Shown: positions 11,423-60,845 of the stretch, in pieces
How positions within the stretch are numbered: the first letter of the stretch is position 1
Layout of the letters: each line of letters opens with the position of its first letter
NCBI GenBank assembly: GCA_964641245.1
Contig: CAZXML010000001.1
Coordinates: forward strand, 229,460 to 293,459
Reading direction: 5' to 3'
DNA length: 64,000 bases
Source of the DNA: an uncultured Gammaproteobacteria bacterium
Lineage (GTDB): Bacteria > Patescibacteriota > Patescibacteriia > Magasanikbacterales > GWA2-37-8
Notes under the pieces: model-generated
Databases searched by the model: none
What the model was told of the DNA's origin: nothing
The model's input: only the letters and a program-made list of their open reading frames with translations
Translations under genes and position numbers: made by a program

Positions 11423-11535
11423 TTGTCATCCTGAACGTAGTGAAGGATCTCTGTCCGTCGTTTTTTTGCAAACCAGACAGAGATTCTTCTCCGTCCCGCC
11501 TAGGCAGGCGGATCAGAATGACAATTGACGAAACC
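11423..11535. repeat. Family A TGTCAT-type palindromic element (MITE-like).
   Basis: ttgtcatcctgaacgtagtgaaggatctctgtc...gacagagattcttc...cagaatgacaa. Confidence 0.8.
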
Positions 11536-23395: not shown

Positions 23396-23518
23396 ATTAA
23401 GCTTTCTTTCTGCCTCCTCTATATCTTTGGCAATGGTCGCGCCGGTTTCTACCCGCTTTATCGCCTTTAAGTGTTCCTTTATTTTATCCTCTTCAGTACT
23501 GTTTGGAGAAATTTGTTA

Positions 23519-23624
23519 GGAACAGCCACTTAAGCGAGTTGGGATGTGTCATATGCCGGTACTTTACCCTGCTTCAGGAGCTTTACCGAGAAGCGCGGGG
23601 TGTTACCGATGTATCTCATCTTCT
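23519..23624. mobile_element. Solo left-end remnant (~106 bp) of the IS481-family element, inverted relative to the full copy at 36961.
   Basis: Its reverse complement matches 36961-37070 at ~93% identity, including the first 12 codons of the transposase (MTHPNSLKWLFL). No transposase body follows. Confidence 0.75.
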
Positions 23625-23631
23625 GCATTAT

Positions 23632-23690
23632 CCACAACTAAAACCTCCCCGGTTAAATCAGGGAGGTTTTAGTTGTGGCTCTATTTTTTA
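23632..23690 (+). terminator. Perfect 18-bp-stem hairpin followed by a T-run.
   Basis: ccacaactaaaacctccc cggttaaatca gggaggttttagttgtgg ctctatttttta. It abuts the IS-end remnant and the GGDEF gene stop. Confidence 0.55.
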
Positions 23691-28311: not shown

Positions 28312-28357
28312 ATCTTGAAAATTTCTAATTATTAATTTCTAATAACCAGTGTCAAAT

Positions 28358-28460
28358 TGTCATCCTGAATGTAATGAAGGATCTCTGTCTCAATCGCCAA
28401 ACGGACAGAGATTCTTCGCTTCACTCAGAATGACAAATGACGTGTGACCTGAATGACAGT
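28358..28460. repeat. Family A TGTCAT-type element.
   Basis: ttgtcatcctgaatgtaatgaaggatctctgtctcaatcgccaaacggacagagattcttcgcttcactcagaatgacaa differs by 1 nt in the core from the copy at 60740. Confidence 0.85.
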
Positions 28461-29201: not shown

Positions 29202-29315
29202 TTGTCATCCTGAATGAAATGAAGGATCTCTGTCCGTTTAGCTGTCATTCCCATAACAATGGGAATCCAGACAATCATCGATTCGACTGGATTCCCGCTT
29301 TGGCGGGAATGACAA
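29202..29315. repeat. Family A half-element fused to a family E element (TGTCATTCCC...GGGAATGACAA).
   Basis: cttgtcatcctgaatgaaatgaaggatctctgtc is followed by tgtcattcccataacaatgggaatcc...ggattcccgctttggcgggaatgacaa. Confidence 0.75.
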
Positions 29316-30844: not shown

Positions 30845-30877
30845 TTGTCATCCTGAATGAAATGAAGGATCTCTGTC
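30845..30877. repeat. Family A half-element.
   Basis: ttgtcatcctgaatgaaatgaaggatctctgtc. Confidence 0.7.
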
Positions 30878-31041: not shown

Positions 31042-31113
31042 ATAACTTAATTTAATGAATTAGAATTTAACACTATAATTCTACTATGTTATTTGTTTGT
31101 TGGCAAACTTAAA

Positions 31114-31223
31114 TTGTCATTCTGAGTGAAACGAAGAATCTCTGTCTGGTTGGCCAACGCGATACTGACAGATATCCTTCACGGAGTTTACACTGAACGC
31201 AGTGAATGTGTTCAGGATGACAA
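31114..31223. repeat. Family A-related TGTCAT element (divergent).
   Basis: ttgtcattctgagtgaaacgaagaatctctgtc...tgttcaggatgacaa. Confidence 0.7.
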
Positions 31224-31232
31224 TCGATGATG

Positions 31233-32198
31233 TTATACGTCCCACTTAAAACCATTGCCGTAGCTACCCCACTCGGCGGTTTTTTCGAATTGGGGTTGGC
31301 GGAGTTCCAGGAAATCTATTATTCCCTGCGGGGATAAATCATAACCGGATATGGAAAAATCTACAGCTTCGTTGGTGGTTGGGCGGGTGACGGAAACCAT
31401 AACCGGTTGTTTTTTGCCGATGGCGTAAGCCAGCTTAACCATCACTTCTCCGCCAACTTTTTTCACCGCGTCTACCGCTATTTTGCGCGCCATATAGGCG
31501 CCACTGCGGTCTACTTTGGTGCCGTCTTTGCCGGAATAGGCGCCACCGCCAACCGGAACTTGCGGGCCATAAGCGTCACAAATAATTTTTCGGCCGGTGA
31601 CGCCGGTGTCCGCGTCAAATCCGCCGATGTCCCAATCGCCGGCCGGGTTGGCGTAGATGGATAATTCGGAATCCACTTCTTTGCCTTTAAACCATTCAAA
31701 AATTATATCGCGCAGTTCGGAAGATTTTGCTTTGTGAAAACTGGCCACCACGCTGCAGATTTTTCCGTCGCGCAATGTGATTTGAGTTTTTCCATCATTG
31801 GGGAATTTGGCATAGATTAATTTGTTTAAATTCCGCGCCAAATATAATTCTTGTGGAACGAATTCTTCGTTTGCGTCGCAGGCATAGCCAACCATTATTC
31901 CCTGATCGCCCGCCCCGCCTACATCCACTCCTTGGGCAATCTCTGAACTCTGTTGAACAATATTTGTATTCACCTGATATTGTTCGCCGGCCACGCGCTT
32001 GGCAATTTGCGCGGCGTCGATTTTTGCGTTAGTGGTAAGTTCGCCGGTAAGAGTGATAAGTCCGTGACCGCCCATGCTTTCCATAGCCACCCGGCTATGC
32101 GGATCCTGTTCTAAACAAGCGTCTAAAATAGCGTCCGATATTCTGTCGCAAATTTTATCCGGGTGACGCGGCGAAACCGATTCGGCTGTGATGAGCAT
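31233..32198 (-). CDS. metK: S-adenosylmethionine synthetase (compact, 321 aa).
   Basis: ESVSPRHPDKICDRISDAILDA, GAGDQGIMVGYA, TGRKIICDAYG and GGGAYSGKDGTKVDRSGAYMAR are present. Confidence 0.9.
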   Translation of the reverse strand: MLITAESVSPRHPDKICDRISDAILDACLEQDPHSRVAMESMGGHGLITLTGELTTNAKIDAAQIAKRVAGEQYQVNTNIVQQSSEIAQGVDVGGAGDQGIMVGYACDANEEFVPQELYLARNLNKLIYAKFPNDGKTQITLRDGKICSVVASFHKAKSSELRDIIFEWFKGKEVDSELSIYANPAGDWDIGGFDADTGVTGRKIICDAYGPQVPVGGGAYSGKDGTKVDRSGAYMARKIAVDAVKKVGGEVMVKLAYAIGKKQPVMVSVTRPTTNEAVDFSISGYDLSPQGIIDFLELRQPQFEKTAEWGSYGNGFKWDV

Positions 32199-32351: not shown

Positions 32352-32569
32352 ATTGACCTCGACCGAACAAATAAATTAAACAAAAAAACTTTCCTTGGCA
32401 GGAAAGAAAGTCGACCTTTATCTTTCCCCGTTGGGGCTAGATTTGGCACCTTATCCCGACTAAGTCGGGACAGGTTGTCGGCAGGTCTTAGGGCTAGTTC
32501 CCTCGCTGCACTCTTGATAACTATATCGTACCAGGTATTTCTTAATTATCAAAAAATACCTGGGGATAA

Positions 32570-33176: not shown

Positions 33177-34235
33177 CTATTTAGTTGTTGAAGTCAGTTC
33201 CGCAAACGGGTTATGAACGTTGATATATAAACGAATGTTGCCGTCTTTAGCCTGTTTGTCAAGATAGCTCATCAAGTCTTGGAATCGGAAAAGAACCTGG
33301 CTGGCACGGACCATCTCCTTATTCACCATTCTTCCCAGCTCATTCTTTACTCTTTCGGTTTTTTTGTCGTCTAATCTGATGATGTGGTAACCGTAAACAC
33401 TCTCTACCAGAGTCGGATTGATTTCACCTTTTTTTAAAGCGAAAGCGGCTTTTTCAAATTCCGGCACCATTTCTCCTTTTCCAAACCAGCCCAAATCACC
33501 GCCGCGTTCACCGGTACTGTCGGTATTATATTTTGTGGCCAGTGCGGCAAAATCCGAGCCGTTTTTTACCTCTTCCAAAACTTTTTCGGCTTGAGCCTTT
33601 AATTCTTCTTTCATTTTTGTATCATCTTTTAATTTTTGCGCCAATTTTGTCTGTAAAATAAACGGACGCATTACTTTTTGTTCGTAGACAGCCATTGTCC
33701 AGCCGTAACGCTTGGTTAATTCTTCGTTGGCGGCCGCTTCATCTTTAAATTGTTGCAACATTTGCGCTTTTAAAGTTTCCACATCTTTATCTTCGGCTAC
33801 CACTTCAAATTTTTTGGCGGCTTCTTGCACCAATAAATTATTTACCAAACGCCACAAAACTTGGTCGGTCATTTGCTCTTCGGTAAGATCGGCTCCGGGA
33901 CTTCTGTCCGGGGCAATACCGGCTTCTCTTTGCGCTTTATCATAATCGCGCATGACGGTGATGGCTTTTAAATCTTCCACGAATGCGACGTAAGGAATTT
34001 TTTCATTTCCTACTTTTAGAACCGGCAAATTTAACGCCTTGGCAACGGCCAGACTGAATTTATCGGTAGCTGTTTTGGCGTATACTTTATAAATACCCAA
34101 ACCGGCAATTGCGCCAACCACAACTACGGCCACACCCAGCCAAACATAACGCTTCATAGAAGCATTTAACGTTTTTGGGCTCTCCGGTGTGTTTTTAATT
34201 TCCACATTTCCTCCTGCCAAATTTTGCTCGTCCAT
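33177..34235 (-). CDS. PpiC/parvulin-type peptidyl-prolyl isomerase (PrsA/SurA-like), membrane anchored.
   Basis: The C-terminal parvulin domain DLGWFGKGEMVPEFEKAAFALKKGEI...YGYHIIRL follows an N-terminal TM helix. Confidence 0.8.
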   Translation of the reverse strand: MDEQNLAGGNVEIKNTPESPKTLNASMKRYVWLGVAVVVVGAIAGLGIYKVYAKTATDKFSLAVAKALNLPVLKVGNEKIPYVAFVEDLKAITVMRDYDKAQREAGIAPDRSPGADLTEEQMTDQVLWRLVNNLLVQEAAKKFEVVAEDKDVETLKAQMLQQFKDEAAANEELTKRYGWTMAVYEQKVMRPFILQTKLAQKLKDDTKMKEELKAQAEKVLEEVKNGSDFAALATKYNTDSTGERGGDLGWFGKGEMVPEFEKAAFALKKGEINPTLVESVYGYHIIRLDDKKTERVKNELGRMVNKEMVRASQVLFRFQDLMSYLDKQAKDGNIRLYINVHNPFAELTSTTK

Positions 34236-34242
34236 ATTTATA

Positions 34243-34304
34243 TCATAGTTGTCATGCTGAATTTATTTCAGCATCTAATCGGTATAGATCCTGAAACAAG
34301 TTCA
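34243..34304. repeat. Family A' twin-hairpin element.
   Basis: tgtcatgctgaatttatttcagcatct...agatcctgaaacaagttcaggatgac. Confidence 0.8.
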
Positions 34305-34312
34305 GGATGACG

Positions 34313-34699
34313 TTAGTTAGTAAAATACTGCCACCATTTTTTATAATTTGAAATATTGCTTAATCCTATCATACTGTTATTTTCTTGTCTATTGCCTTTG
34401 ACTTCGGCTTTCGGCACCACCAAAACCTGCTCGCCAGGCTTCACCATATTTAATTCCGTGCGCGCTTTTTCTTCCGCAAAACTGTCGGACTTTACATATT
34501 TAAGCACTTCCAATAATTCCATTTTTTTGGCCTGCAAATTTTTGGCCTGATCCTGCAAGTTCCGTATTTCCTGCGTCACCAAATAATCCTGATAATACGC
34601 CCGCGCGTATCCAAACATCACCATCATGGCAATAATGGTGGCCGCAAACATAAATAATCGGGAGCCTAAAATAATTTTCCAACCGGCGTCTTTTGCCAT
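34313..34699 (-). CDS. FtsB/DivIC-like septum formation initiator.
   Basis: TM helix, coiled coil and ARTELNMVKPGEQV (FtsB signature). Start MAKDAGW at 34699 is preferred. The ORF-track extension to 34750 is encoded by the repeat element. Confidence 0.6.
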   Translation of the reverse strand: MAKDAGWKIILGSRLFMFAATIIAMMVMFGYARAYYQDYLVTQEIRNLQDQAKNLQAKKMELLEVLKYVKSDSFAEEKARTELNMVKPGEQVLVVPKAEVKGNRQENNSMIGLSNISNYKKWWQYFTN

Positions 34700-34713
34700 T
34701 GATTTAAAGTTAC

Positions 34714-34795
34714 TTGTCATCCTGAATGAAATGAAGGATCCCTGTCTCAATCGACAATGACGGACAGAGATTCTTCGCTTTGCTCAGAATGACAA
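34714..34795. repeat. Family A TGTCAT-type element.
   Basis: ttgtcatcctgaatgaaatgaaggatccctgtctcaatcgacaatgacggacagagattcttcgctttgctcagaatgacaa. Confidence 0.85.
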
Positions 34796-34808
34796 AGGAC
34801 AATTGATA

Positions 34809-35429
34809 TTATACCATGTCCGAACCCAATTGATCCTCAATCAACTTCTTAACTTCCACCAAATCTCCATCCGTTAAATCCGGAATTATTTTGATAAAAT
34901 TATTGTAAATAACTTTCATGTTAGCCACTTTAATATCTTGCTTATACTGCTGACTGATATCGGAGAGCAGGAGTTGAGTTTTGGAAGGGCTGGCGATATT
35001 TAAAATTTCCAGAACAAACTGCTGGCTTTTGGTTTGAATGGCGATGCCGCCAAAATTAAATAAACTTTGGGCGATACCTTTTTTTCTGACGACCACATCT
35101 TTTACATCCAAATAACTGACGGATGAAATAATTTCATCAAACCAGCCCAGCCGGTGAATATCCACCACCCGGTCGCTGGTGATAACCAAAACATTTACGT
35201 GGTTTAAAAACCAGGTGCGTAAAATTATATAAAGTCCAATAAACATTCCCAACCCGTAAACTATATTCCCCCACCAGCCATAGAAAAAAAGGCGGAACAT
35301 AAAAAAAGACGAGGCAAATAAAAATATCAGACCGAGTAAATACTTCCAGGCATAAGCCGCCACGTGGGGCGCGATTACGGAAATAATTTTTTCATCTTCT
35401 TTCAGGTGGATTTTTTTGGCAATGGACAT
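34809..35429 (-). CDS. Membrane protein with a bacterial PH-like domain (YdbS/YdbT-like).
   Basis: Two N-terminal TM helices are followed by a ~100-aa beta-rich domain, matching the bPH_2 architecture. Confidence 0.5.
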   Translation of the reverse strand: MSIAKKIHLKEDEKIISVIAPHVAAYAWKYLLGLIFLFASSFFMFRLFFYGWWGNIVYGLGMFIGLYIILRTWFLNHVNVLVITSDRVVDIHRLGWFDEIISSVSYLDVKDVVVRKKGIAQSLFNFGGIAIQTKSQQFVLEILNIASPSKTQLLLSDISQQYKQDIKVANMKVIYNNFIKIIPDLTDGDLVEVKKLIEDQLGSDMV

Positions 35430-35472
35430 AAGTAAATTCTAATTTCTCAATTTCCTAATTTCTAATCTCGAA

Positions 35473-35577
35473 TTGTCATCCTGAACGGAGTGAAGGATCT
35501 CTGTCCGTATAGTTTTCACCAACCAGACAGAGATTCTTCGCTTTGCTCAGAATGACAGTTACGTACGGGATGACAAT
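35473..35577. repeat. Family A TGTCAT-type element plus an extra terminal fragment.
   Basis: ttgtcatcctgaacggagtgaaggatctctgtc...gacagagattcttcgctttgctcagaatgacag, followed by ttacgtacgggatgacaatgc. It supplies the last 6 codons and the stop of the Mur ligase gene. Confidence 0.8.
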
Positions 35578-36896
35578 GCGGATAACACTTCTCTGGCAAC
35601 ACGGCGGTCATCCCAAACAATTTTCTTTCCCCCGGCCACCGCAATATACGGCTCCGTGCCTTTGGCGGTAATAACCACCACGTCTCCGGCTTGAGCCAAG
35701 GAAACGGCTTTAATTATTGCCTGACGACGGTCCACAATCACAAACAAGTCTGCATTGTCTTTTTTTCCGGACGAACGCGCGCCAACCGCCAGCATTTCGG
35801 CAATTTGTTCCGGATCTTCATCGTAACAGTTCACATCTGTAATTATAACATAATCGGTTAATTTACCTGCTATTTGCCCCATAGATTCTCTTTTGCTTTT
35901 GTCGCGACCGCCGCCGTCGGACCCAACCACCGCAATAATTTTGTGGTCATGACCAACCATTTCACGCAAACTTTTAAACAATTCGGTTAAACTTACGGGT
36001 TCGTGCGCATAATCTACTATCACCTTAAAATTTTGTCCTTCATCAATTAATTCCATTCTGCCCTCCACTAATTTTACGCTCGCCAACCCTTCGGCAATTT
36101 TCTCATCGGAAATTTTCTGCGCCCTGCCCACCGCAATCGCAGCCAGCGCGTTGTAAACGTTAAACCGGCCGATTATATTTAATCTGAATTTTTTGCCACC
36201 GACTGTAAAATCAGAACCATTCTGATCGGAAACGATATTTTCTCCGCTTAATAATTTTGTCGCGCTGTTTTTGTCATTGCGAGGAGCTAAAAGCGACGTG
36301 GCAATCCCATTGTTGGCACTACCAGTACTGTGGGATTGCTTCGCTTTGCTCGCAATGACAGAAAACGCCCACTTCTCCACCGCCGGAAAACTCAAAAAAT
36401 AATCCGCATGCTCATCATCCGTATTAGCAACAATTGTTTTTGCTTTCGCAAAAATTTTGGCTTTGTCTTTTTTTAGATTATCAAATCCACCGTGGCGTTC
36501 CGAATGTTCGGTTCCTAAATTAGTAAACACCGCCGTATGGTAATTCAATCCGATATGCCGGTACTGCAAAATTCCTTCCGAAGATGTTTCCACCACCGCG
36601 TATTTGCACCCGGCTTTTACCATTTGTTTTAATAAACTCTGAATTTTCCCTCGCCCTAGCATGGTCATTTTTTTATCGTTCAGCCAGCGCTTATTGGCCA
36701 CCTGAAATTCTACGGTGCTTAGTAGCCCAACTTTATTTCCTCCCGCTTCTAAAACAGACGCAATAAGCCGGCAAGTGGTAGACTTGCCCTTGGTGCCGGT
36801 TACCCCAATCACAGTTAATTTTCGGGCCGGCCGGCCATACCACCAATAAGCGGACCAGGCCAATAAAAAATGAAGGATTTTCTTAAAAAAAGACAT
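35559..36896 (-). CDS. Mur ligase family protein (MurE-like UDP-N-acetylmuramoyl-tripeptide ligase).
   Basis: VIGVTGTKGKSTT (P-loop), DYAHEPVSL and AKGTEPY motifs are present. It carries a ~30-aa in-frame repeat-encoded insertion (SVIASKAKQSHSTGSANNGIATSLLAPRND). Confidence 0.75.
   Translation of the reverse strand: MSFFKKILHFLLAWSAYWWYGRPARKLTVIGVTGTKGKSTTCRLIASVLEAGGNKVGLLSTVEFQVANKRWLNDKKMTMLGRGKIQSLLKQMVKAGCKYAVVETSSEGILQYRHIGLNYHTAVFTNLGTEHSERHGGFDNLKKDKAKIFAKAKTIVANTDDEHADYFLSFPAVEKWAFSVIASKAKQSHSTGSANNGIATSLLAPRNDKNSATKLLSGENIVSDQNGSDFTVGGKKFRLNIIGRFNVYNALAAIAVGRAQKISDEKIAEGLASVKLVEGRMELIDEGQNFKVIVDYAHEPVSLTELFKSLREMVGHDHKIIAVVGSDGGGRDKSKRESMGQIAGKLTDYVIITDVNCYDEDPEQIAEMLAVGARSSGKKDNADLFVIVDRRQAIIKAVSLAQAGDVVVITAKGTEPYIAVAGGKKIVWDDRRVAREVLSALSSRT
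36272..36360. repeat. Family B element (GTCATTGCGAGGAG...GCTCGCAATGACA) lying in-frame inside the Mur ligase gene.
   Basis: tgtcattgcgaggagctaaaagcgacgtggcaatcccattgttggcactaccagtactgtgggattgcttcgctttgctcgcaatgaca. Intergenic copies lie at 52370 and 53868. Confidence 0.85.
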
Positions 36897-36960
36897 AAAA
36901 TTTATGGCTGATACCTAAAAATTATACCAAAAAAATGGCAAAATGACAAGCTGCATTATG

Positions 36961-38130
36961 TAGAAGATGAGATACATCGGTAACACTCCACGCTTCTCGG
37001 CAAAGCTCCTGAAGCAGGGTAAAGTACCGACATATGACACATCCCAACTCTCTTAAATGGCTGTTCCTGACCAAGGAAAAGCTACCACAGGTTTTTTTCA
37101 GAGACAACCAAAAGAAATTGCTTGCCCATCATGATCGTTGGCGGCGAACCGCAGGCCTCCTTAAATTATCCAAGGGCGCGAAGAGCCGCCTCGAGTGGAT
37201 GATATTTTATGAAACGAAAGGTGAGCGGAATGCTCGTTTAACTGCCAGGCATTTCGGCATCGTTCCCAAGACTTTTTATCAATGGCATAATCGCTTTGAT
37301 GAAGGCGACCTTAAAACGCTCGAAGAGCGTTCACGCGCGCCCGTTAGCAAACGGGTGCGGGAGTACACACCCCTCCAGTATGTCCGGGTAATTAAACTTC
37401 GCAAGGAACATATCCGGTGGGGCAAGATGAAGCTTTTAAAACTGTATCAAGATGACTTTCCAAAAGATGCAACAATTACCAGTTGGAAGGTTCAATGTAT
37501 TATTGAAGTATCCGGCATCTACTACCACCCTCAAAAACAAGCTAGAATCAACCGCAAACGCATATTGTCGGTGAAGCGGAAGAAGATTACTGACCTCGCC
37601 AAAAAACCACGGCAGGGTTTTTTGGTATGTCTCGACACAATCGTGCGTTATGTTGCCGGACAGAAGCGCTACATTTTGACGGCGATTGACCAATACTCAA
37701 AAATTACCTTTGGCCGAATGTACACGACACATAGCTCGGCAAACGCGAGGGACTTTCTTCACCGCCTCCACTATCTGCTTGACGGAAAGATTGAAAACAT
37801 TCAAACTGACAACGGCAGTGAATTCAAATTGCATTTTGATACGGCCTTAACGAAGTTGAATATTCCACACTACCATTCTCGGGTAAGGACACCAAAAGAT
37901 AACGCGGTGAACGAACGGTTCAATCGTACCCTAGATGAAGAATTCCTGGCTATGGGCAATCTGATGGCAGATACCGTTCTTTTTAACCAACGTCTGACTG
38001 AGTGGCTGGTAGAATACAACTTCAAACGTCCGCATCAATCTCTGGGGTATCTACCACCAATTAACTTTCATTTTAAATATCATAAAGTGTTACCGATGTA
38101 CCCGTCTAGTACAACTGATTGACACATCGC
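36961..38130 (+). mobile_element. IS481-family insertion sequence (single transposase ORF).
   Basis: Transposase 37034-38122 (362 aa) has an N-terminal HTH and an rve/DDE core (DNGSEF...RPHQSLGY). An imperfect terminal repeat core TACATCGGTAACACT lies at both ends. The left end is defined by comparison with the remnant at 23519-23624. The right boundary is approximate. Confidence 0.8.
37034..38122 (+). CDS. IS481-family DDE transposase.
   Basis: HTH, integrase core D...D...E region, DNGSEFK and KRPHQSLGYLPP are present. Confidence 0.85.
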   Translation: MTHPNSLKWLFLTKEKLPQVFFRDNQKKLLAHHDRWRRTAGLLKLSKGAKSRLEWMIFYETKGERNARLTARHFGIVPKTFYQWHNRFDEGDLKTLEERSRAPVSKRVREYTPLQYVRVIKLRKEHIRWGKMKLLKLYQDDFPKDATITSWKVQCIIEVSGIYYHPQKQARINRKRILSVKRKKITDLAKKPRQGFLVCLDTIVRYVAGQKRYILTAIDQYSKITFGRMYTTHSSANARDFLHRLHYLLDGKIENIQTDNGSEFKLHFDTALTKLNIPHYHSRVRTPKDNAVNERFNRTLDEEFLAMGNLMADTVLFNQRLTEWLVEYNFKRPHQSLGYLPPINFHFKYHKVLPMYPSSTTD

Positions 38131-38147
38131 GCCAATTATGATACACT
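38119..38147 (+). promoter_or_regulatory. Candidate outward-reading promoter created by the IS right end.
   Basis: TTGACA (38119-38124, overlapping the transposase stop), a 17-nt spacer, then TACACT. An aggaaggg RBS precedes the ATG at 38180. Confidence 0.3.
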
Positions 38148-38179
38148 CATCACAGATACAAACAGAAAGGAAGGGTCGC

Positions 38180-38662
38180 ATGAAACGATGTACATCCTGC
38201 GGAAAGTCCGATTTACGTTTGGGTACAGTGTCTCACCACCTATCGGTCGGTGGGTATAAATTTAGCGGGCGAATGCCTGGCGAAATCTGTGATACATGTG
38301 GCAGAGAGACTGTGGAAGCTAAGTATTTGGTGACATTCGAGCTGGTGGTGGCTGGACTATTCGCTGAATCGGGACTAACCTCAACACCTGAAGCGTTCCA
38401 TTTCATGCGCCATTCGCTAGGTATGACGGCTGTTGAAATGGCAAGCCTGTTCGGAGTGACGCCCGAAACAGTTTCCCGATGGGAAAATGGAAAACTCCCA
38501 ATCGAAACGCGGTCCCTCGCGCTACTTGGTTGCATGGTCATGGATGCGGTTAATCGACGCAAGAATACCATGAATTTGCTCCACGCAGTTCGTTCGCCCA
38601 CGAATATGAAGGGGATAGTACTGGTGCTTGATGGAGTCAATGTCTGGGCTGACGTGCCCTAA
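38180..38662 (+). CDS. MqsA-like protein (N-terminal CxxC...CxxC zinc ribbon plus XRE-type HTH).
   Basis: MKRCTSCGKSDLRLG...GEICDTCGRETV zinc ribbon, then MTAVEMASLFGVTPETVSRWENGK HTH. No MqsR-like toxin is adjacent. Confidence 0.55.
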   Translation: MKRCTSCGKSDLRLGTVSHHLSVGGYKFSGRMPGEICDTCGRETVEAKYLVTFELVVAGLFAESGLTSTPEAFHFMRHSLGMTAVEMASLFGVTPETVSRWENGKLPIETRSLALLGCMVMDAVNRRKNTMNLLHAVRSPTNMKGIVLVLDGVNVWADVP

Positions 38663-38725
38663 AACACCTGCTAATTAGTTAGTTCCTTTGTCGCCAAAGC
38701 GTAATGCGGAGGCGATTTTTTTATA

Positions 38726-38754
38726 TTGACAAAACCCTATTTTTAGGGTATACC
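38726..38754 (+). promoter_or_regulatory. Sigma70-like promoter overlapping a perfect palindrome.
   Basis: TTGACA, then aaaCCCTAtttttTAGGGta (17 nt), then TATACC. An AGGAGG RBS and an 11-codon ORF (MMPESIVPANT) follow. Confidence 0.35.
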
Positions 38755-38938
38755 TACTCCTAGTTTTTAGGAGGTGTTCAGATGATGCCGGAATCAATCG
38801 TTCCGGCTAATACGTGAAGGTGCGGGAAAATTCGTAATGTTGGCAGTTTGCTTTACGGATAACCGCTATCCAGGGCTTGGCTCCGGAATATATTTCGGGA
38901 TTCGCAACCCCAAATGACGGGGGTTTTTCATTTAATTT

Positions 38939-39511
38939 TTACTGTCTAATACTTACTTCGTAAAGAATCTGCTCCAACTTATGCAAAGCCTGTTTGGCCT
39001 GATCAAACTTCTGGCGATTATAGCCGGTCAAATTCATATCTACCAATTCGGTAATAATTTCATCGGCAACTTTACTGCATCTTTTTACTTCTTCGTATTT
39101 TTTTTCGGTGGCGGATTTTATGGCGTAACGCAAAAGTTCTCCGGGCACATCGCATAAACCGCTGATAAAAATATCCGAATCAACCTTGATTTTTGCTATC
39201 TTGCCGATAGTTTTCTTGTGCAGATACTGATTAAAAATAGAAGCCTCCACAAATTCTTCCAACGCCGCTTTATATGAACCCTCTTCAAAAATTCCCGGGT
39301 CTTTCTTATTTTTTAAATTTAAGTCCAGCAGTATTTTTTCCGCCTGACCCAAATAATTTTGCCCTTCGCTTGCATCGTCTCTTTGCATGGCAAATATCGC
39401 CTTCTTCGCCAGAAATTGCGCATCACCCGCTGATTTTATAATCCCCCGCCGTTTGGCGGAATAATCCAATAATTCCTGGCGTACCTGGTTGAAATATTTT
39501 TTGTCCAACAT
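38939..39511 (-). CDS. Translin-family protein (bacterial homologue).
   Basis: 190-aa all-helical protein. The C-terminus KLEQILYEVSIRQ matches translin KVEEVVYDLSIRG, with further alignable helices (LLRYAIKSA..., NLTGYNRQKFDQ). Confidence 0.5.
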   Translation of the reverse strand: MLDKKYFNQVRQELLDYSAKRRGIIKSAGDAQFLAKKAIFAMQRDDASEGQNYLGQAEKILLDLNLKNKKDPGIFEEGSYKAALEEFVEASIFNQYLHKKTIGKIAKIKVDSDIFISGLCDVPGELLRYAIKSATEKKYEEVKRCSKVADEIITELVDMNLTGYNRQKFDQAKQALHKLEQILYEVSIRQ

Positions 39512-39512
39512 A

Positions 39513-40511
39513 CTATTCTTTTTTTAACTGTTTAATATAATCCGAAATATCATTTACACCCTTACTCTCCAACCACAACCACCATTCCGCCCCCCAAAGA
39601 TACGCCCTGGGCATGCCGGTTCGCGCGGCAAATTCAACATTGCTTTTTAATCTGGCCAAGTTCATTGATTTATATTGTTCGGCGAGCGGTGTTTCGGCAA
39701 ACGGCGTATTTGGTATCCACGGTTCGGCCTGAAGTTCGGTAATAAACGCGCTGTTCGTGCCCCGACCATTAAGCCACAGCCTGGCGGTATATGCAAGCGG
39801 TGACAAAATCCAGTCATAAGTCCAATAACCGAATGTTTTATCCCAAACAACTCTGTATAAAGTAGCGCCAAACAAATCTGCCGACTTAGCCGAACGAAAC
39901 CACATACTCAATTCTCCGCTGTCGGTAACCATGGTTTGGTGCGATGAGTCAAGTTGTTTTACCAATTCCACTTCTTCTTTTAGTTCCTGTTTGGCAATCG
40001 GTCCGCAACCTCCAAAACTCAAAAATGGTTCGTTTTCCACCTGCCAAATTTCCAGCGCCGGATTATTTTTATAACGTTCCACTGTAATTTTGATAAAACT
40101 TAACACGTCGGGCTGATGACTGCCATGGCTGGAAGCGTCTACCCAGTTGGGATAATGACATTCAGGCCAGCGCGGAGTTTTGTGTCCAACTGCCAAAACT
40201 ACTTTGGCGTTTCTTTTACCCGCCTCGTTCATCATCCAGTCCAAATCATTCCAATCGTATTGGCCTTTTGTTTTTTCTATTAAATCCCACTGCGCGGATA
40301 ACCGGATATATTTAAACTGCCAGTTATCTAAAATTTTTATATATGAATCCCGCGGGTTAAGGCCCAAAAAAGATGCGTATTCCGTGTTAAAACTAACGCC
40401 GTAAATCATTTTATTATTTTTGAAGCCGGAAAATTTTATAAGATAAATCCAAGCCGCCGCAATTACGGCTATCGCAAAAATTATCCACATAGTTTTTTTT
40501 GTTTTAAACAT
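39513..40511 (-). CDS. Clan GH-A (GH5/GH113-like) glycoside hydrolase, membrane anchored.
   Basis: N-terminal TM helix, then a TIM-barrel-like sequence with the catalytic WQVENEP (NEP acid/base motif). Start assigned to MFKTKK at 40511. Confidence 0.55.
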   Translation of the reverse strand: MFKTKKTMWIIFAIAVIAAAWIYLIKFSGFKNNKMIYGVSFNTEYASFLGLNPRDSYIKILDNWQFKYIRLSAQWDLIEKTKGQYDWNDLDWMMNEAGKRNAKVVLAVGHKTPRWPECHYPNWVDASSHGSHQPDVLSFIKITVERYKNNPALEIWQVENEPFLSFGGCGPIAKQELKEEVELVKQLDSSHQTMVTDSGELSMWFRSAKSADLFGATLYRVVWDKTFGYWTYDWILSPLAYTARLWLNGRGTNSAFITELQAEPWIPNTPFAETPLAEQYKSMNLARLKSNVEFAARTGMPRAYLWGAEWWLWLESKGVNDISDYIKQLKKE

Positions 40512-40512
40512 G

Positions 40513-41445
40513 CTACTTAAATAATAATAAAAACAAACCAACACTGATGATAAATACAGCTATCGCTTTTTGAATTATTTCTTTTTTGGTAAATGATTCT
40601 TTTATTATTTTGGGGAAGAATTTTGACATAAGAGCCACAACCACGATAAGTATGGCGTATTGCACTCCGGCGAGCGCGTTTACCAGCGAAACACTGCCAA
40701 TGGCCATGGCGTATTGCAATAAAACTGACCCCATTACTCCAAACGCGAGATCCACGGCAATCAAAACAAGACGTTTTTTACTTGCCGCTTTCTCGGTTAT
40801 TGTTTGTTCTTTTTTACTAAAAATTGCGCGGATGGACGGATTTATAATTAAGGCTAAACCAAAAATACCGATTGGCAATTTGGTCAAAACAAAACCATTA
40901 TAAAAACCATACGCGTCGTAAGCATATTTTGCGGCCACATGCGAAACGGCAAAAAATAATCCGGCCACTACCCCCCACTCCAGACCGCGACGCCAACCCC
41001 GAAGGGGCCCCTTTGAGGCCAGCTGTTGCGCGCTTTGATCAAACGAAATTACTAGTGAGCCGATGATTAAAATAGTAGCCGCTAACAGGTGGTAAGGGGT
41101 TAAATTTTCTCCCAAAAAAATCCGGCTAAAAAATAAAATAAAAAAAGGCGCGGCCGCCCCAATGAGCGGTCCGATGTGGCTAATTTCGCTTTTCTGAATA
41201 CCAATATACATTGTCCACAAACCAAGGACGAAGCAGAAGCCCGATACGGCAAAAATTAAATAGTCTGTCTGGACAGCGGGCATTTTTATCCCAAATGGCA
41301 GGAGTAGAAAAAACGGCAGAACAATAATTGAGGAATAAAAAACAAAGATAATCGGTTTAACAACAGATTTGCTTAAAATGTATTTATCCATGACGCCCAC
41401 AATCGCCAGTAGCGCGTTTCCGATTAAAGCCACGAGAAGCCACAT
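40513..41445 (-). CDS. EamA/DMT-family transporter.
   Basis: 310 aa with 10 predicted TM helices as two EamA repeats. Confidence 0.7.
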   Translation of the reverse strand: MWLLVALIGNALLAIVGVMDKYILSKSVVKPIIFVFYSSIIVLPFFLLLPFGIKMPAVQTDYLIFAVSGFCFVLGLWTMYIGIQKSEISHIGPLIGAAAPFFILFFSRIFLGENLTPYHLLAATILIIGSLVISFDQSAQQLASKGPLRGWRRGLEWGVVAGLFFAVSHVAAKYAYDAYGFYNGFVLTKLPIGIFGLALIINPSIRAIFSKKEQTITEKAASKKRLVLIAVDLAFGVMGSVLLQYAMAIGSVSLVNALAGVQYAILIVVVALMSKFFPKIIKESFTKKEIIQKAIAVFIISVGLFLLLFK

Positions 41446-44859: not shown

Positions 44860-46628
44860 GTATGTCTGTTACAGAGGAAATGATTAAATATCTGCTGGCC
44901 AATCCCCCCAAAACGGAGGATGCTTTTGGCGTGGTTTTAAGAAAAATTTTGCGTCAGACCAAAAACGCGCAGGCCAACATTCCCACCAAATCGTCGCTGA
45001 TTAAATCATATCATAAATTGTTAAAACAGCACAAGATTAAAAAGAGTCCGGCGCTGGAAAAAACCTTAATGAAGCGGGCGGTGCGCACTTTGTCCGGCGT
45101 CAGCATTATTACCGTGCTCACCAAACCATTCCCCTGTCCCGGAAAGTGCATTTATTGCCCCACCGAAGCGCGCATGCCTAAAAGTTACATTTCCGATGAA
45201 CCGGCCGCGGCGCGCGCCTTAAGTTTGGCGTTTGATCCTTACCAACAGGTTGTTCAACGCTTTAAGGCTTTAGAAAATAACGGCCACCCCACCGATAAAG
45301 TGGAGTTGATTATTAAGGGTGGAACATGGAATTCGTATCCGATTAAATACCAATACTGGTTTGTTGCCAGATGTTTTGAAGCGTGCAATAATGTAAAATT
45401 TAATGCAGCCAAGCCAAGGGGCGCGCGTTCGGCAGTAGACGAGAAATTTTCTTTGGATAAATTGCGCCAATTGAGTTTCAAAATTCAAAAAGCAAATGAA
45501 AACGGCAAACACCGCCTGATTGGTTTAACCATAGAAACCCGCCCCGATTTTATAAACGCCGGCACTATCGCGGCTATGCGGGAAATGGGTACCACCAGAA
45601 TAGAACTAGGCGTACAAAATACCAATGAAAAAATATTAAAATTAACAAAACGCGGCCATGGCACGGCCGAAGTAAAACGCGCCACCAAAATGCTAAAAGA
45701 TTACGGTTTTAAAGTTGACTACCATTTAATGCCCCAATTGCCCGGAGCGACTCCGGCGACGGATTTAAAAATGATGTTAAAAGTTTTTGACGACCCGGAT
45801 TACCGTCCGGATATGATTAAGGTGTATCCGTGCACGGTGGTGAAAACTTCCGAACTTTACGACTGGCTAAAACGGGGTGAATACAAAACGTATTCAGACC
45901 GCCATTTGATAAACATGCTGAAAAAATTTAAAGTAAAAGTTCCGCGCTACGTGCGCATTTCCCGGTTAATCCGCGATATTCCCGGTCATCATATTCAAGC
46001 CGGAAATAAAATGACAAACTTGCGCCAGGTAATCCAGGAGGAGTTAAAAAAAGAAGGATTAAAATGCAGTTGTCTGCGCTGTCGCGAGGTCGGACATCAA
46101 CACATCGAGTCAAATGTCAAAAGTCAAAAGTCAAAAGTCAAAATGTTTGTAGACAAATACGAAGCCAACGGCGGGACGGAATATTTCTTAAGTTTCGAAG
46201 ATACCAAACGCGACGTTGTTTACGCGTTTTGCCGATTGCGTGTTCTCAAGCCTGTCATCCTGAGCAAAGCGAAGGATCTCTCTCTTTCAAACAAAAGGGA
46301 TTCTTCGGTCACTTCACTCCCTCAGAATGACAACCACAACCTCCCCAACGAAGGAATTAGCGCGGCCGAATTAGTCAAAATGGGCTACCCCGCTTTTATC
46401 CGCGAACTCCATACTTACGGCCAACTTATAAACATTGGGAAAAAAGCCAAAGGGGCTAGCCAGCATATTGGCATGGGCACAAAATTAATTGTTGAAGCGG
46501 AAAAAATCTGTAGAAAAAACAAGGCCTACAAATTAGCCGTAATTTCCGGAGTGGGTGTACGCGAATATTACAAAAAATTTGGCTACAAACTGGAAAACAC
46601 CTATATGGTAAAGACTTTGAAAAAGTAG
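44841..46628 (+). CDS. elp3: Elp3-family radical-SAM/GNAT protein (tRNA uridine-34 modification homologue).
   Basis: CPGKCIYCP radical-SAM cluster motif, LIGLTIETRPDF, and a C-terminal GNAT region (HIGMGTKLIVEAEKIC). A start at 44862 (MSVTEEM) is also possible. It carries two in-frame repeat insertions. Confidence 0.8.
   Translation: MYLFLTCMSVTEEMIKYLLANPPKTEDAFGVVLRKILRQTKNAQANIPTKSSLIKSYHKLLKQHKIKKSPALEKTLMKRAVRTLSGVSIITVLTKPFPCPGKCIYCPTEARMPKSYISDEPAAARALSLAFDPYQQVVQRFKALENNGHPTDKVELIIKGGTWNSYPIKYQYWFVARCFEACNNVKFNAAKPRGARSAVDEKFSLDKLRQLSFKIQKANENGKHRLIGLTIETRPDFINAGTIAAMREMGTTRIELGVQNTNEKILKLTKRGHGTAEVKRATKMLKDYGFKVDYHLMPQLPGATPATDLKMMLKVFDDPDYRPDMIKVYPCTVVKTSELYDWLKRGEYKTYSDRHLINMLKKFKVKVPRYVRISRLIRDIPGHHIQAGNKMTNLRQVIQEELKKEGLKCSCLRCREVGHQHIESNVKSQKSKVKMFVDKYEANGGTEYFLSFEDTKRDVVYAFCRLRVLKPVILSKAKDLSLSNKRDSSVTSLPQNDNHNLPNEGISAAELVKMGYPAFIRELHTYGQLINIGKKAKGASQHIGMGTKLIVEAEKICRKNKAYKLAVISGVGVREYYKKFGYKLENTYMVKTLKK
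46109..46143 (+). repeat. Tandem heptanucleotide repeat (GTCAAAT then GTCAAAA x4) inside the elp3 coding sequence.
   Basis: gtcaaat gtcaaaa gtcaaaa gtcaaaa gtcaaaa, encoding SNVKSQKSKVK. Confidence 0.85.
46264..46332. repeat. Family A TGTCAT-type element inserted in-frame in elp3.
   Basis: tgtcatcctgagcaaagcgaaggatctctctc...ccctcagaatgacaa, encoding VILSKAKDLSLSNKRDSSVTSLPQND. Confidence 0.8.
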
Positions 46629-60720: not shown

Positions 60721-60845
60721 ATTGTCATCCCGAGCGAGTGGTTGTCATCCTGAATGTAATGAAGGATCTCTGTCTCAATCGCCGAACGGACAGAGATTCT
60801 TCGCTTCACTCAGAATGACAAGTGGTGTGCGGTCAGAATGACAAA
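60721..60845. repeat. Composite family A element with nested partial ends.
   Basis: ttgtcatcccgagcgagtgg is followed by ttgtcatcctgaatgtaatgaaggatctctgtctcaatcgccgaacggacagagattcttcgcttcactcagaatgacaa, then gtggtgtgcggtcagaatgacaa. Confidence 0.85.

Follow-up and report, generated by a model that had tools for sequence, protein, structure and literature searches.

A TRAX-like translin-superfamily gene upstream of murE in Magasanikbacteria and related Patescibacteria

Among described proteins, the C3PO nucleases of archaea are among the most similar to the gene product treated here. They consist of a single type of subunit, which forms a closed helical homo-octamer cage, and are represented by NeC3PO of Nanoarchaeum equitans (NEQ131, also called NeTrax; PDB 5JR9, 5JRC, 5JRE) and AfC3PO of Archaeoglobus fulgidus (AfTRAX; PDB 3ZC0, 3ZC1). 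In NeC3PO the residues Glu82, Glu85, Asp117 and Glu121 are the ligands of two metals, and cleavage is weakened when they are mutated; Lys34 and Arg124 are substrate contacts, and Glu123, Glu126, Asp193 and Glu197 of human TRAX (HsTRAX) are the counterparts of the metal ligands (PMC5100593). In eukaryotes TRAX (TSNAX) is the catalytic subunit of the translin:TRAX C3PO hetero-octamer, for which passages of PMC5085120 and PMC13266039 give roles in the clearance of small interfering RNA (siRNA) passenger strands, in tRNA processing and in microRNA (miRNA) degradation. Translin/TRAX (C3PO) is commonly regarded as an RNase of eukaryotes and archaea. For bacteria, a passage of PMC5100593 that cites Gupta et al. 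(2012, J Mol Evol 75:155) names the Chloroflexi as the sole phylum with a translin-superfamily gene, which is AfC3PO-like; the study of Gupta et al. on bacterial translins is also cited in a passage of PMC5424206. The subject of the present analysis is an open reading frame (ORF) for a protein of 190 aa, which lies in a stretch of 64,000 nucleotides of the contig CAZXML010000001.1 (assembly GCA_964641245.1), called the window in the following. The contig belongs to the Magasanikbacterales, a lineage of the Patescibacteria or Candidate Phyla Radiation (CPR). The ORF probably encodes a single-subunit, TRAX-like CPR counterpart of archaeal C3PO, i.e., a cage-forming metal-dependent RNase, and the gene would be an old vertical resident upstream of murE, next to which an insertion sequence (IS) of the IS481 family and an MqsA-like gene arrived later.

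Family membership, fold and active-site residues

The ORF starts with ATG, and its product ends with ...HKLEQILYEVSIRQ. A comparison with the Pfam family Translin (PF01997) yielded an E-value of 3.6e-17 and 63.4 bits, with a gathering cutoff of 25.9. Residues 21-190 aligned to profile positions 3-205 of 205, and thus the match is collinear and nearly full-length. PF01997 was present in all close homologues of the protein as well. Other all-helical families did not compete, and the runner-up Pfam matches, PTS_IIA (0.016) and FliS (0.094), were far below the threshold. In NCBIfam the ORF product matched solely PRK14562 models, which are named 'haloacid dehalogenase superfamily protein', and the scores were far under the equivalog cutoffs. 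An identity as haloacid dehalogenase was rejected, and the models were taken as archaeal translin-like proteins under a misleading name, because two retrieved proteins with the source label 'haloacid dehalogenase' (P0121, P0431) are translin-family proteins by sequence.

An AlphaFold2 model of the monomer was built on 33 homologues. It is all-alpha with seven helices, and it has a mean predicted local distance difference test score (pLDDT) of 92.5 and a predicted template modelling score (pTM) of 0.85. A Foldseek comparison with the PDB at E<=1e-3 yielded 50 matches, all of which were translin, TRAX or C3PO chains with template modelling scores (TM) of 0.80-0.88. NeC3PO was the top match (TM 0.86/0.88, root-mean-square deviation 2.4 Å); the values for AfC3PO and for the TRAX chains of human C3PO (3pja J, K, L) were 0.85 and 0.86, respectively. 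The Pfam match, the predicted fold, the Foldseek result and a profile search against the PDB (see below) show that the ORF product is a genuine translin-superfamily protein. This bears out a preliminary description, made from the letters of the window, which had reported a translin-family homologue with end-to-end collinearity to translin. The C-terminal motif that had been highlighted there is also real, KLEQILYEVSIR of the ORF product being aligned to KIEEVVYDVSIR of Drosophila translin.

The residues of the putative active site were located with a HMMER alignment to NEQ131. E86, E89, D121 and E125 of the ORF product correspond to the metal ligands Glu82, Glu85, Asp117 and Glu121 of NeC3PO, and K36 and R128 correspond to the substrate contacts Lys34 and Arg124; the respective codons were read in the sequence (Table 1). 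All six residues were invariant in 33 of 33 close homologues (alignment A1). Among 100 single-domain representatives of clusters, 95-98 had kept each of them, and the exceptions were fragments or conservative changes. E86 and E89 were found in 96 of these representatives, the rest being fragments or having one E-to-D change. The position of NeC3PO Ser26 is occupied by Ala in the ORF product and by Ser in 66 of the 100 representatives. The catalytic Glu and Asp residues are thus essentially invariant in the family, and, as judged from the alignments, the ORF product has an intact active-site signature under purifying conservation.

A family profile of 49 diverse members (A2) was searched against the solved proteins of the PDB. 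NeC3PO was retrieved with the best E-value (1.6e-26), followed by human TRAX (1.1e-20), fly TRAX (2e-20), AfTRAX (7.9e-19), fly translin (about 6e-15) and human translin (2.4e-11). With the whole protein, TRAX was ahead of translin by about nine orders of magnitude in E-value. At the site of D121 the ORF product has the catalytic Asp, and fly translin has Gln. Because the catalytic tetrad is kept, the profile ranks TRAX-type proteins first and translin has Gln at D121, the ORF product is classified by its sequence as TRAX-like, of the catalytic or archaeal C3PO type, and not as a translin in the strict sense. The earlier designation as translin-family homologue is therefore correct for the family and is refined with regard to the type.

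NeC3PO is both the best structural match and the best sequence match, with an E-value of 2.4e-8 for the single sequence. Both proteins have about 190 aa, and they share the tetrad and the Lys and Arg substrate contacts; NeC3PO is encoded by a single gene, and for the ORF product a single gene was found in the 64 kb of the window. In contrast, the identity is only about 21%, the host of the ORF is a bacterium of the CPR, its oligomer and activity are proposed by analogy, the position upstream of murE has no archaeal equivalent, and the Nanoarchaeota are not the nearest group of the CPR family by reciprocal profile scores. AfC3PO and the Chloroflexi translins are likewise single-subunit prokaryotic proteins with the E/E/D/E tetrad (AfC3PO also with the fold, as noted above), but they form a separate sub-lineage with T, A or S at the K36 contact. 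Eukaryotic TRAX has the tetrad, both contacts and the fold in common with the ORF product. However, the latter has 190 aa instead of 290 aa, is devoid of the TRAX insertions, lacks a context of RNA interference machinery, and has no partner translin gene in the window. Eukaryotic translin (TSN) shares the fold, and its C-terminal helix motif, K-[LIV]-E-x-[IV]-x-Y-[ED]-[VL]-S-[IL]-R, is strikingly alike. In contrast to the ORF product, it has Gln in place of the catalytic Asp, and it was matched by the profile at about 1e-11 versus 1e-20 to 1e-26 for the TRAX type.

A second translin-family ORF was not found in the window, and a single copy is consistent with a homo-oligomer as in archaea. One metagenome-assembled genome (MAG) in the scan of species genomes described below had two translin loci (L022, L043). 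As both loci carry the murE synteny, this suggests a mixed bin.

Distribution, gene neighbourhood and the insertion

The preliminary description had regarded translins as sporadic in bacteria, which is not borne out for this lineage. A word-indexed search yielded 462 homologues, and the top 120 had identities of 58-90%. Those with names among the top 120 were from Candidatus Magasanikbacteria, Parcubacteria and Patescibacteria MAGs, and some of them had already been labelled 'translin'; the label of JGI on relatives is 'translin family RNA/ssDNA-binding protein', ssDNA meaning single-stranded DNA. When 1.84 billion cluster representatives were searched exhaustively with HMMER, 1,798 clusters (50% identity) were retrieved at E<=1e-3, 171 of them at E<=1e-30. 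In addition, one genome per GTDB species was scanned with alignment A3 as the query, and at least 223 genomes contained a relative of the ORF. The best 80 of the 223 relatives had identities of 47-88%, and all 80 belonged to the Magasanikbacteria or other Patescibacteria. Named members of the more distant clusters were from Falkowbacteria, Kerfeldbacteria and Parcubacteria, and the nearest relatives (88-90% protein identity) were from Hainich groundwater assemblies. The best matches also mark the window as part of a CPR genome of the Magasanikbacteria type. The searchable literature yielded no relevant discussion of translin in the CPR or Patescibacteria. The family is already known by automatic annotation as 'translin' in some MAGs, and the points added here are its breadth in the CPR, its distinctness from the Chloroflexi type and a possible link to a protist fusion family.

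Among the GTDB-representative MAG records of relatives (L012, L013, L015-L017, L019 and others), many bear the title 'uncultured Gammaproteobacteria bacterium', and one that of 'Candidatus Udaeobacter sp.'. Such titles are probably submitter placeholders or mislabels, because the same contigs show the Magasanikbacteria gene order.

Five independent relatives had the gene order EamA, glycoside hydrolase, translin, murE, 206-aa hypothetical, DivIC and PrsA-like peptidyl-prolyl isomerase (PPIase). The distance between the translin stop and the murE start was only 1-7 nt in four loci (L001, L002, L004 and L006). The neighbourhood was counted in the best 80 species genomes, in which 76 loci had at least 1.5 kb downstream of translin. 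In 69 of the 80 genomes translin was followed by a co-oriented murE gene at a distance of no more than 800 nt, and in 56 of them at no more than 200 nt, and the order translin-then-murE was kept down to a translin identity of 47%. The identities to the window proteins were correlated between translin and murE (Spearman 0.83, n=73), as expected of two co-inherited genes. A conserved upstream partner of translin was not found, and the upstream genes differ between clades; conservation of the glycoside-hydrolase-like neighbour is limited to the closest clade, in which the translin identity is at least 77%.

The GC content of the translin gene and that of its third codon positions (GC3) are 0.398 and 0.440, compared with 0.438+/-0.033 and 0.452+/-0.062 for the long ORFs of the window, and are thus within the background. 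A tblastn search for homologues of the ORF in the records of 72,556 plasmids and 50,697 phages gave no match. PADLOC also yielded no match for the ORF. Because of the conserved murE synteny, the breakpoints described below, the native composition, the co-divergence with murE and the missing plasmid and phage matches, it is concluded that the translin gene is long-resident and vertically inherited in Magasanikbacteria and allied lineages of the CPR. In the distant past, the CPR ancestor may have received the gene from another domain of life or donated it to one, which is a separate claim from a recent acquisition.

In the window the junction between translin and murE is occupied by about 2.0 kb of DNA. 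In blastn comparisons with the loci L001-L011, homology through the translin gene ended at 38931-38939 and restarted at 36897-36900, at the murE start. Neither an IS481 transposase nor an MqsA-like gene was present at the translin-murE junction in any of the 80 species genomes. As the homology to the relatives breaks there and both genes are missing in 80 of 80, the segment is an insertion. It contains the IS481-family element and the gene for an MqsA-like regulator (Table 1). The latter has a GC content of 0.499 and is the compositional outlier of the region. No recognisable MqsR toxin gene lies beside it, and its immediate upstream neighbour is the IS. The IS and the MqsA-like regulator are later arrivals beside a resident translin gene, and they are uninformative on its origin.

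On the minus strand, a sigma70-like promoter match was found at 36949..36921 (TTGTCA-17-TATAAT with TG in the spacer, 11 of 12 positions), which is a consensus match only. It is situated inside the edge of the insert and precedes the murE start by about 25 nt. The murE gene is now cut off from the translin operon and could be driven by this putative promoter.

Further observations were made on the inserted DNA. A 123-bp fragment at 23512-23634 is 91% identical, in inverted orientation, to the left end of the IS (36952-37074). This fragment is probably the leftover solo end of an IS copy; if so, the IS has been active elsewhere in the genome. The MqsA-like gene is separated from the translin stop by 276 nt of non-coding DNA (38663-38938). 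This stretch has a promoter-like TTGACA box and a mini-ORF of 11 codons that has a strong GGAGG site (38782-38817); a terminator-like hairpin on the plus strand (38906-38925) adjoins the translin stop codon. No structured RNA was detected in this stretch with Rfam at E<=1.

Table 1. Coordinates of features in the window
Feature	Coordinates	Strand	Remarks
TRAX-like ORF	38939..39511	minus	190 aa
K36 codon	39404..39406	minus	corresponds to NeC3PO Lys34, substrate contact
E85-E86-F-V-E89 codons	39245..39259	minus	metal ligands E86 and E89 by NEQ131 alignment
D121-V-P-G-E125 codons	39137..39151	minus	metal ligands D121 and E125 by alignment
R128 codon	39128-39130	minus	corresponds to NeC3PO Arg124, substrate contact
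Inserted DNA, ~2.0 kb	36901..38930		at translin-murE junction; not in any relative compared
IS481-family DDE transposase	37034..38122	plus	NCBIfam IS481 E=1.7e-55; Pfam rve/rve_3
Candidate terminal inverted repeats of the IS481-family element	36973-36987 and 38086-38100		
MqsA-family zinc-ribbon and helix-turn-helix antitoxin-like regulator	38138..38662	plus	TIGR03830 65.2 bits (cutoff 61.8), PF15731
EamA-family transporter gene	40513..41445	minus	first gene of co-oriented block in closest clade
TIM-barrel glycoside-hydrolase-like gene	39513..40544	minus	adjoins translin upstream; stop 1 nt from translin ATG
murE (UDP-MurNAc-tripeptide synthetase)	35559..36896	minus	TIGR01085 349 bits (cutoff 257)
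206-aa hypothetical	34809-35429	minus	conserved downstream block (33177..35429)
DivIC/FtsB-like gene	34313-34750	minus	conserved downstream block
PrsA/PpiC-type PPIase	33177-34235	minus	conserved downstream block
Palindromic repeat copies	35471-35561, 34701-34802, 11423-11489, 28355-28435, 31112-31182, 60742-60820		
Palindromic repeat, partial copies	29202-29247, 30845-30877, 46252-46285		
S-adenosylmethionine (SAM) riboswitch	32415-32523	minus	RF00162, 55.8 bits; upstream of ORF 31233-32198

Some features outside the insertion were also recorded. The MurE protein of the window aligns to TIGR01085 from profile position 73 on, and the MurE proteins of the relatives are likewise short (423-455 aa); the window MurE thus appears to be devoid of the usual N-terminal domain. 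A palindromic intergenic repeat of 85-90 nt, TGTCATCCTGA...TCAGAATGACA, is present in at least eight copies in the window, and more copies were found in intergenic spacers of L006-L011. The predicted hairpin has a free energy of -50.2 kcal/mol on the minus strand (z=-10.5) and of -45.4 kcal/mol on the plus strand (z=-8.6). The repeat had no Rfam match at the gathering threshold, and it looks like a repetitive extragenic palindromic (REP) or miniature inverted-repeat transposable (MITE)-like element. At the position that corresponds to the ORF downstream of the SAM riboswitch, the locus L009 has a gene for SAM synthetase.

Relation to archaeal, Chloroflexota and protist proteins

A distance-based, bootstrapped neighbour-joining (NJ) tree was calculated from 95 sequences and 190 columns. 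The sample was drawn from the best 150 of the 1,798 representatives, a minority of the single-domain sequences had taxon labels, HsTRAX was included as a partial sequence, and canonical translin was left out. The tree separated Archaeoglobales, AfTRAX-like proteins, Chloroflexota and Methanococci from the CPR type, protist fusion proteins, Nanoarchaeota and HsTRAX with a bootstrap value of 96%. A search that started from AfTRAX retrieved the Chloroflexota protein P0431 among proteins of Archaeoglobales and Methanococci, and P0431 scored 135-220 bits with profiles of the AfTRAX type versus 68 bits with the CPR profile. In addition, K36 is common to the CPR family, Nanoarchaeota, HsTRAX and the C-terminal domains of the protist proteins, whereas AfTRAX-type and Chloroflexota proteins have T, A or S. 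Because of the 96% split, the profile scores and the K36 character, the CPR family is placed apart from the published Chloroflexi translins of the AfTRAX-like type, as a separate bacterial lineage. The reciprocal search from NEQ131 retrieved five proteins, all of which were Nanoarchaeum-like, and thus gave no bridge to the CPR.

Tandem proteins of 330-690 aa with two translin domains made up 51 of the top 150 representatives (P0141-P0269 range). Four of the fusions were traced to protists, namely to the diatom Coscinodiscus (P0149), the raphidophyte Chattonella (P0146), the choanoflagellate Didymoeca (P0169) and the prasinophyte Cymbomonas (P0309); P0178 and P0309 are also among the example two-domain fusion proteins. 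In 51 of 51 cases the tetrad as well as K36 and R128 are intact in the C-terminal domain, and the N-terminal, translin-like domain has lost the tetrad. The two-domain proteins look like covalent fusions of a translin-like and a TRAX-like domain. The searchable literature contained nothing relevant on two-domain fusions or on diatom translin.

In profile comparisons, the CPR family and the C-terminal domains of the fusions were each other's best non-self match (141 and 131 bits), and the other groups reached at most 95 bits. The fusions are also the neighbours of the CPR family in the NJ tree, but the clade that joins the two has a bootstrap value of only 52%. They differ from the CPR proteins in being eukaryotic, in their length, and in the extra N-terminal domain without catalytic residues. 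The protist fusions are thus the apparent closest sampled relatives of the CPR family, and this apparent sister relation bears on the evolution of the translin/TRAX pair. It is tempting to go further and to speculate that the CPR family is a second, independent bacterial translin lineage akin to undescribed protist fusions and the product of an ancient transfer between a bacterium and a eukaryote. Its members would then be a core homo-oligomeric RNase, coupled to the murE/divIC operon, which partly fills in for the RNA-decay toolkit that reduced genomes lack. This combined scenario is regarded as rather doubtful.

Proposed function and alternative explanations

By analogy with the C3PO proteins of N. 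equitans and A. fulgidus, the ORF product would assemble into a closed helical homo-octamer cage. Two-metal sites for Mg2+ or Mn2+ would be formed on the inner surface by E86, E89, D121 and E125, and K36 and R128 would grip the phosphate backbone. Short single-stranded RNA that enters the cage would be cleaved, and ssDNA would be cleaved more weakly. In the cell the protein may act in the clearing of RNA fragments or as a processing endonuclease, which is the most plausible role in the CPR because of the roles that have been reported for eukaryotic C3PO. The oligomeric state, the nuclease activity, the substrate and the cellular role are all inferred from the archaeal and eukaryotic systems. 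The translin gene is normally located directly upstream of murE in a murE-divIC-prsA cluster for cell envelope and division, the junction of which is split by the insertion in the present genome. The gene may keep its fixed place before murE because it is co-expressed with genes of growth and division, or simply by operon inertia.

Several points weigh against the proposal of a C3PO-type nuclease. The octamer and the activity rest on archaeal analogy and on a model of the monomer. The scope of the analysis is 64 kb of the genome, so that a translin-like partner paralogue may exist elsewhere. When the C-terminal half of the ORF product was compared alone, translins were matched with 1.9e-5 and TRAX with 0.13. 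Furthermore, RNA metabolism offers no obvious reason for the adjacency to murE, which may reflect nothing else than a stable operon.

The C-terminal half, which is nearer to translins than to TRAX, and the label 'translin family RNA/ssDNA-binding protein' on relatives would be in accordance with a non-catalytic protein of the translin type, i.e., a nucleic-acid-binding protein or chaperone that acts in ssDNA or RNA binding, recombination or mRNA handling. Yet the four metal-ligand residues of TRAX are present and invariant, where translin has Gln at D121, and the whole-protein profile favours TRAX. In addition, the N-terminal domains of the fusions have lost the tetrad, which shows that these residues are dispensable where catalysis is not needed, and a non-catalytic function is thus held to be unlikely. 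Slightly less credit still is given to a role specific for envelope and division, either in the processing or decay of the murE-divIC-prsA transcript or as a moonlighting function in peptidoglycan precursor synthesis. It would explain that translin-murE is kept down to low identity while the upstream neighbours vary, and the short spacers suggest co-transcription or translational coupling. But CPR genomes are small and have few, long operons, so that gene order alone carries little weight, and in the window the genes are 2 kb apart and murE has a promoter-like site of its own, so that a tight coupling is not obligatory. To our knowledge, no cell-wall-related function of translin or TRAX exists.

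Two further explanations start from the genes next to the ORF. The preliminary description had taken the neighbouring IS and foreign regulator as a sign of lateral acquisition, and a recent acquisition of translin with or by them could be argued from the direct adjacency of the IS481-family transposase and the MqsA-like gene, and also from the report of translin genes in only one bacterial phylum (PMC5100593). The comparison with the relatives reversed this view. The order glycoside hydrolase-translin-murE is common to relatives without the IS, and the translin-murE adjacency was found in 69 of 80 genomes, in contrast to none with the IS481 or MqsA-like gene at that place. The breakpoints mark the 2-kb segment and not translin as the insert, translin diverges together with murE and has native GC and GC3 values, in contrast to the MqsA-like gene, and the plasmid and phage collections were devoid of homologues. 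A recent acquisition is therefore very improbable. Membership in an anti-phage or other mobile defence system, as might be imagined for a nuclease-like protein beside an antitoxin-like gene, is more improbable still. It is disfavoured by the negative results with PADLOC and with the plasmid and phage collections and by the 80 species genomes, in which the gene has a stable housekeeping neighbourhood that lacks the MqsA-like gene.

A practical lesson of this locus is that a gene cannot be taken as foreign on the basis of an adjacent IS. Taken together, a TRAX-like gene with intact catalytic residues is widespread and stably inherited in a large lineage of the CPR/Patescibacteria, and at least 223 genomes, each of a different species, contain a relative. 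Should the protein be an active cage nuclease, it would add an enzyme of RNA processing or decay to organisms with a poorly understood RNA metabolism, and C3PO could then be studied in a small bacterial model with a single subunit.

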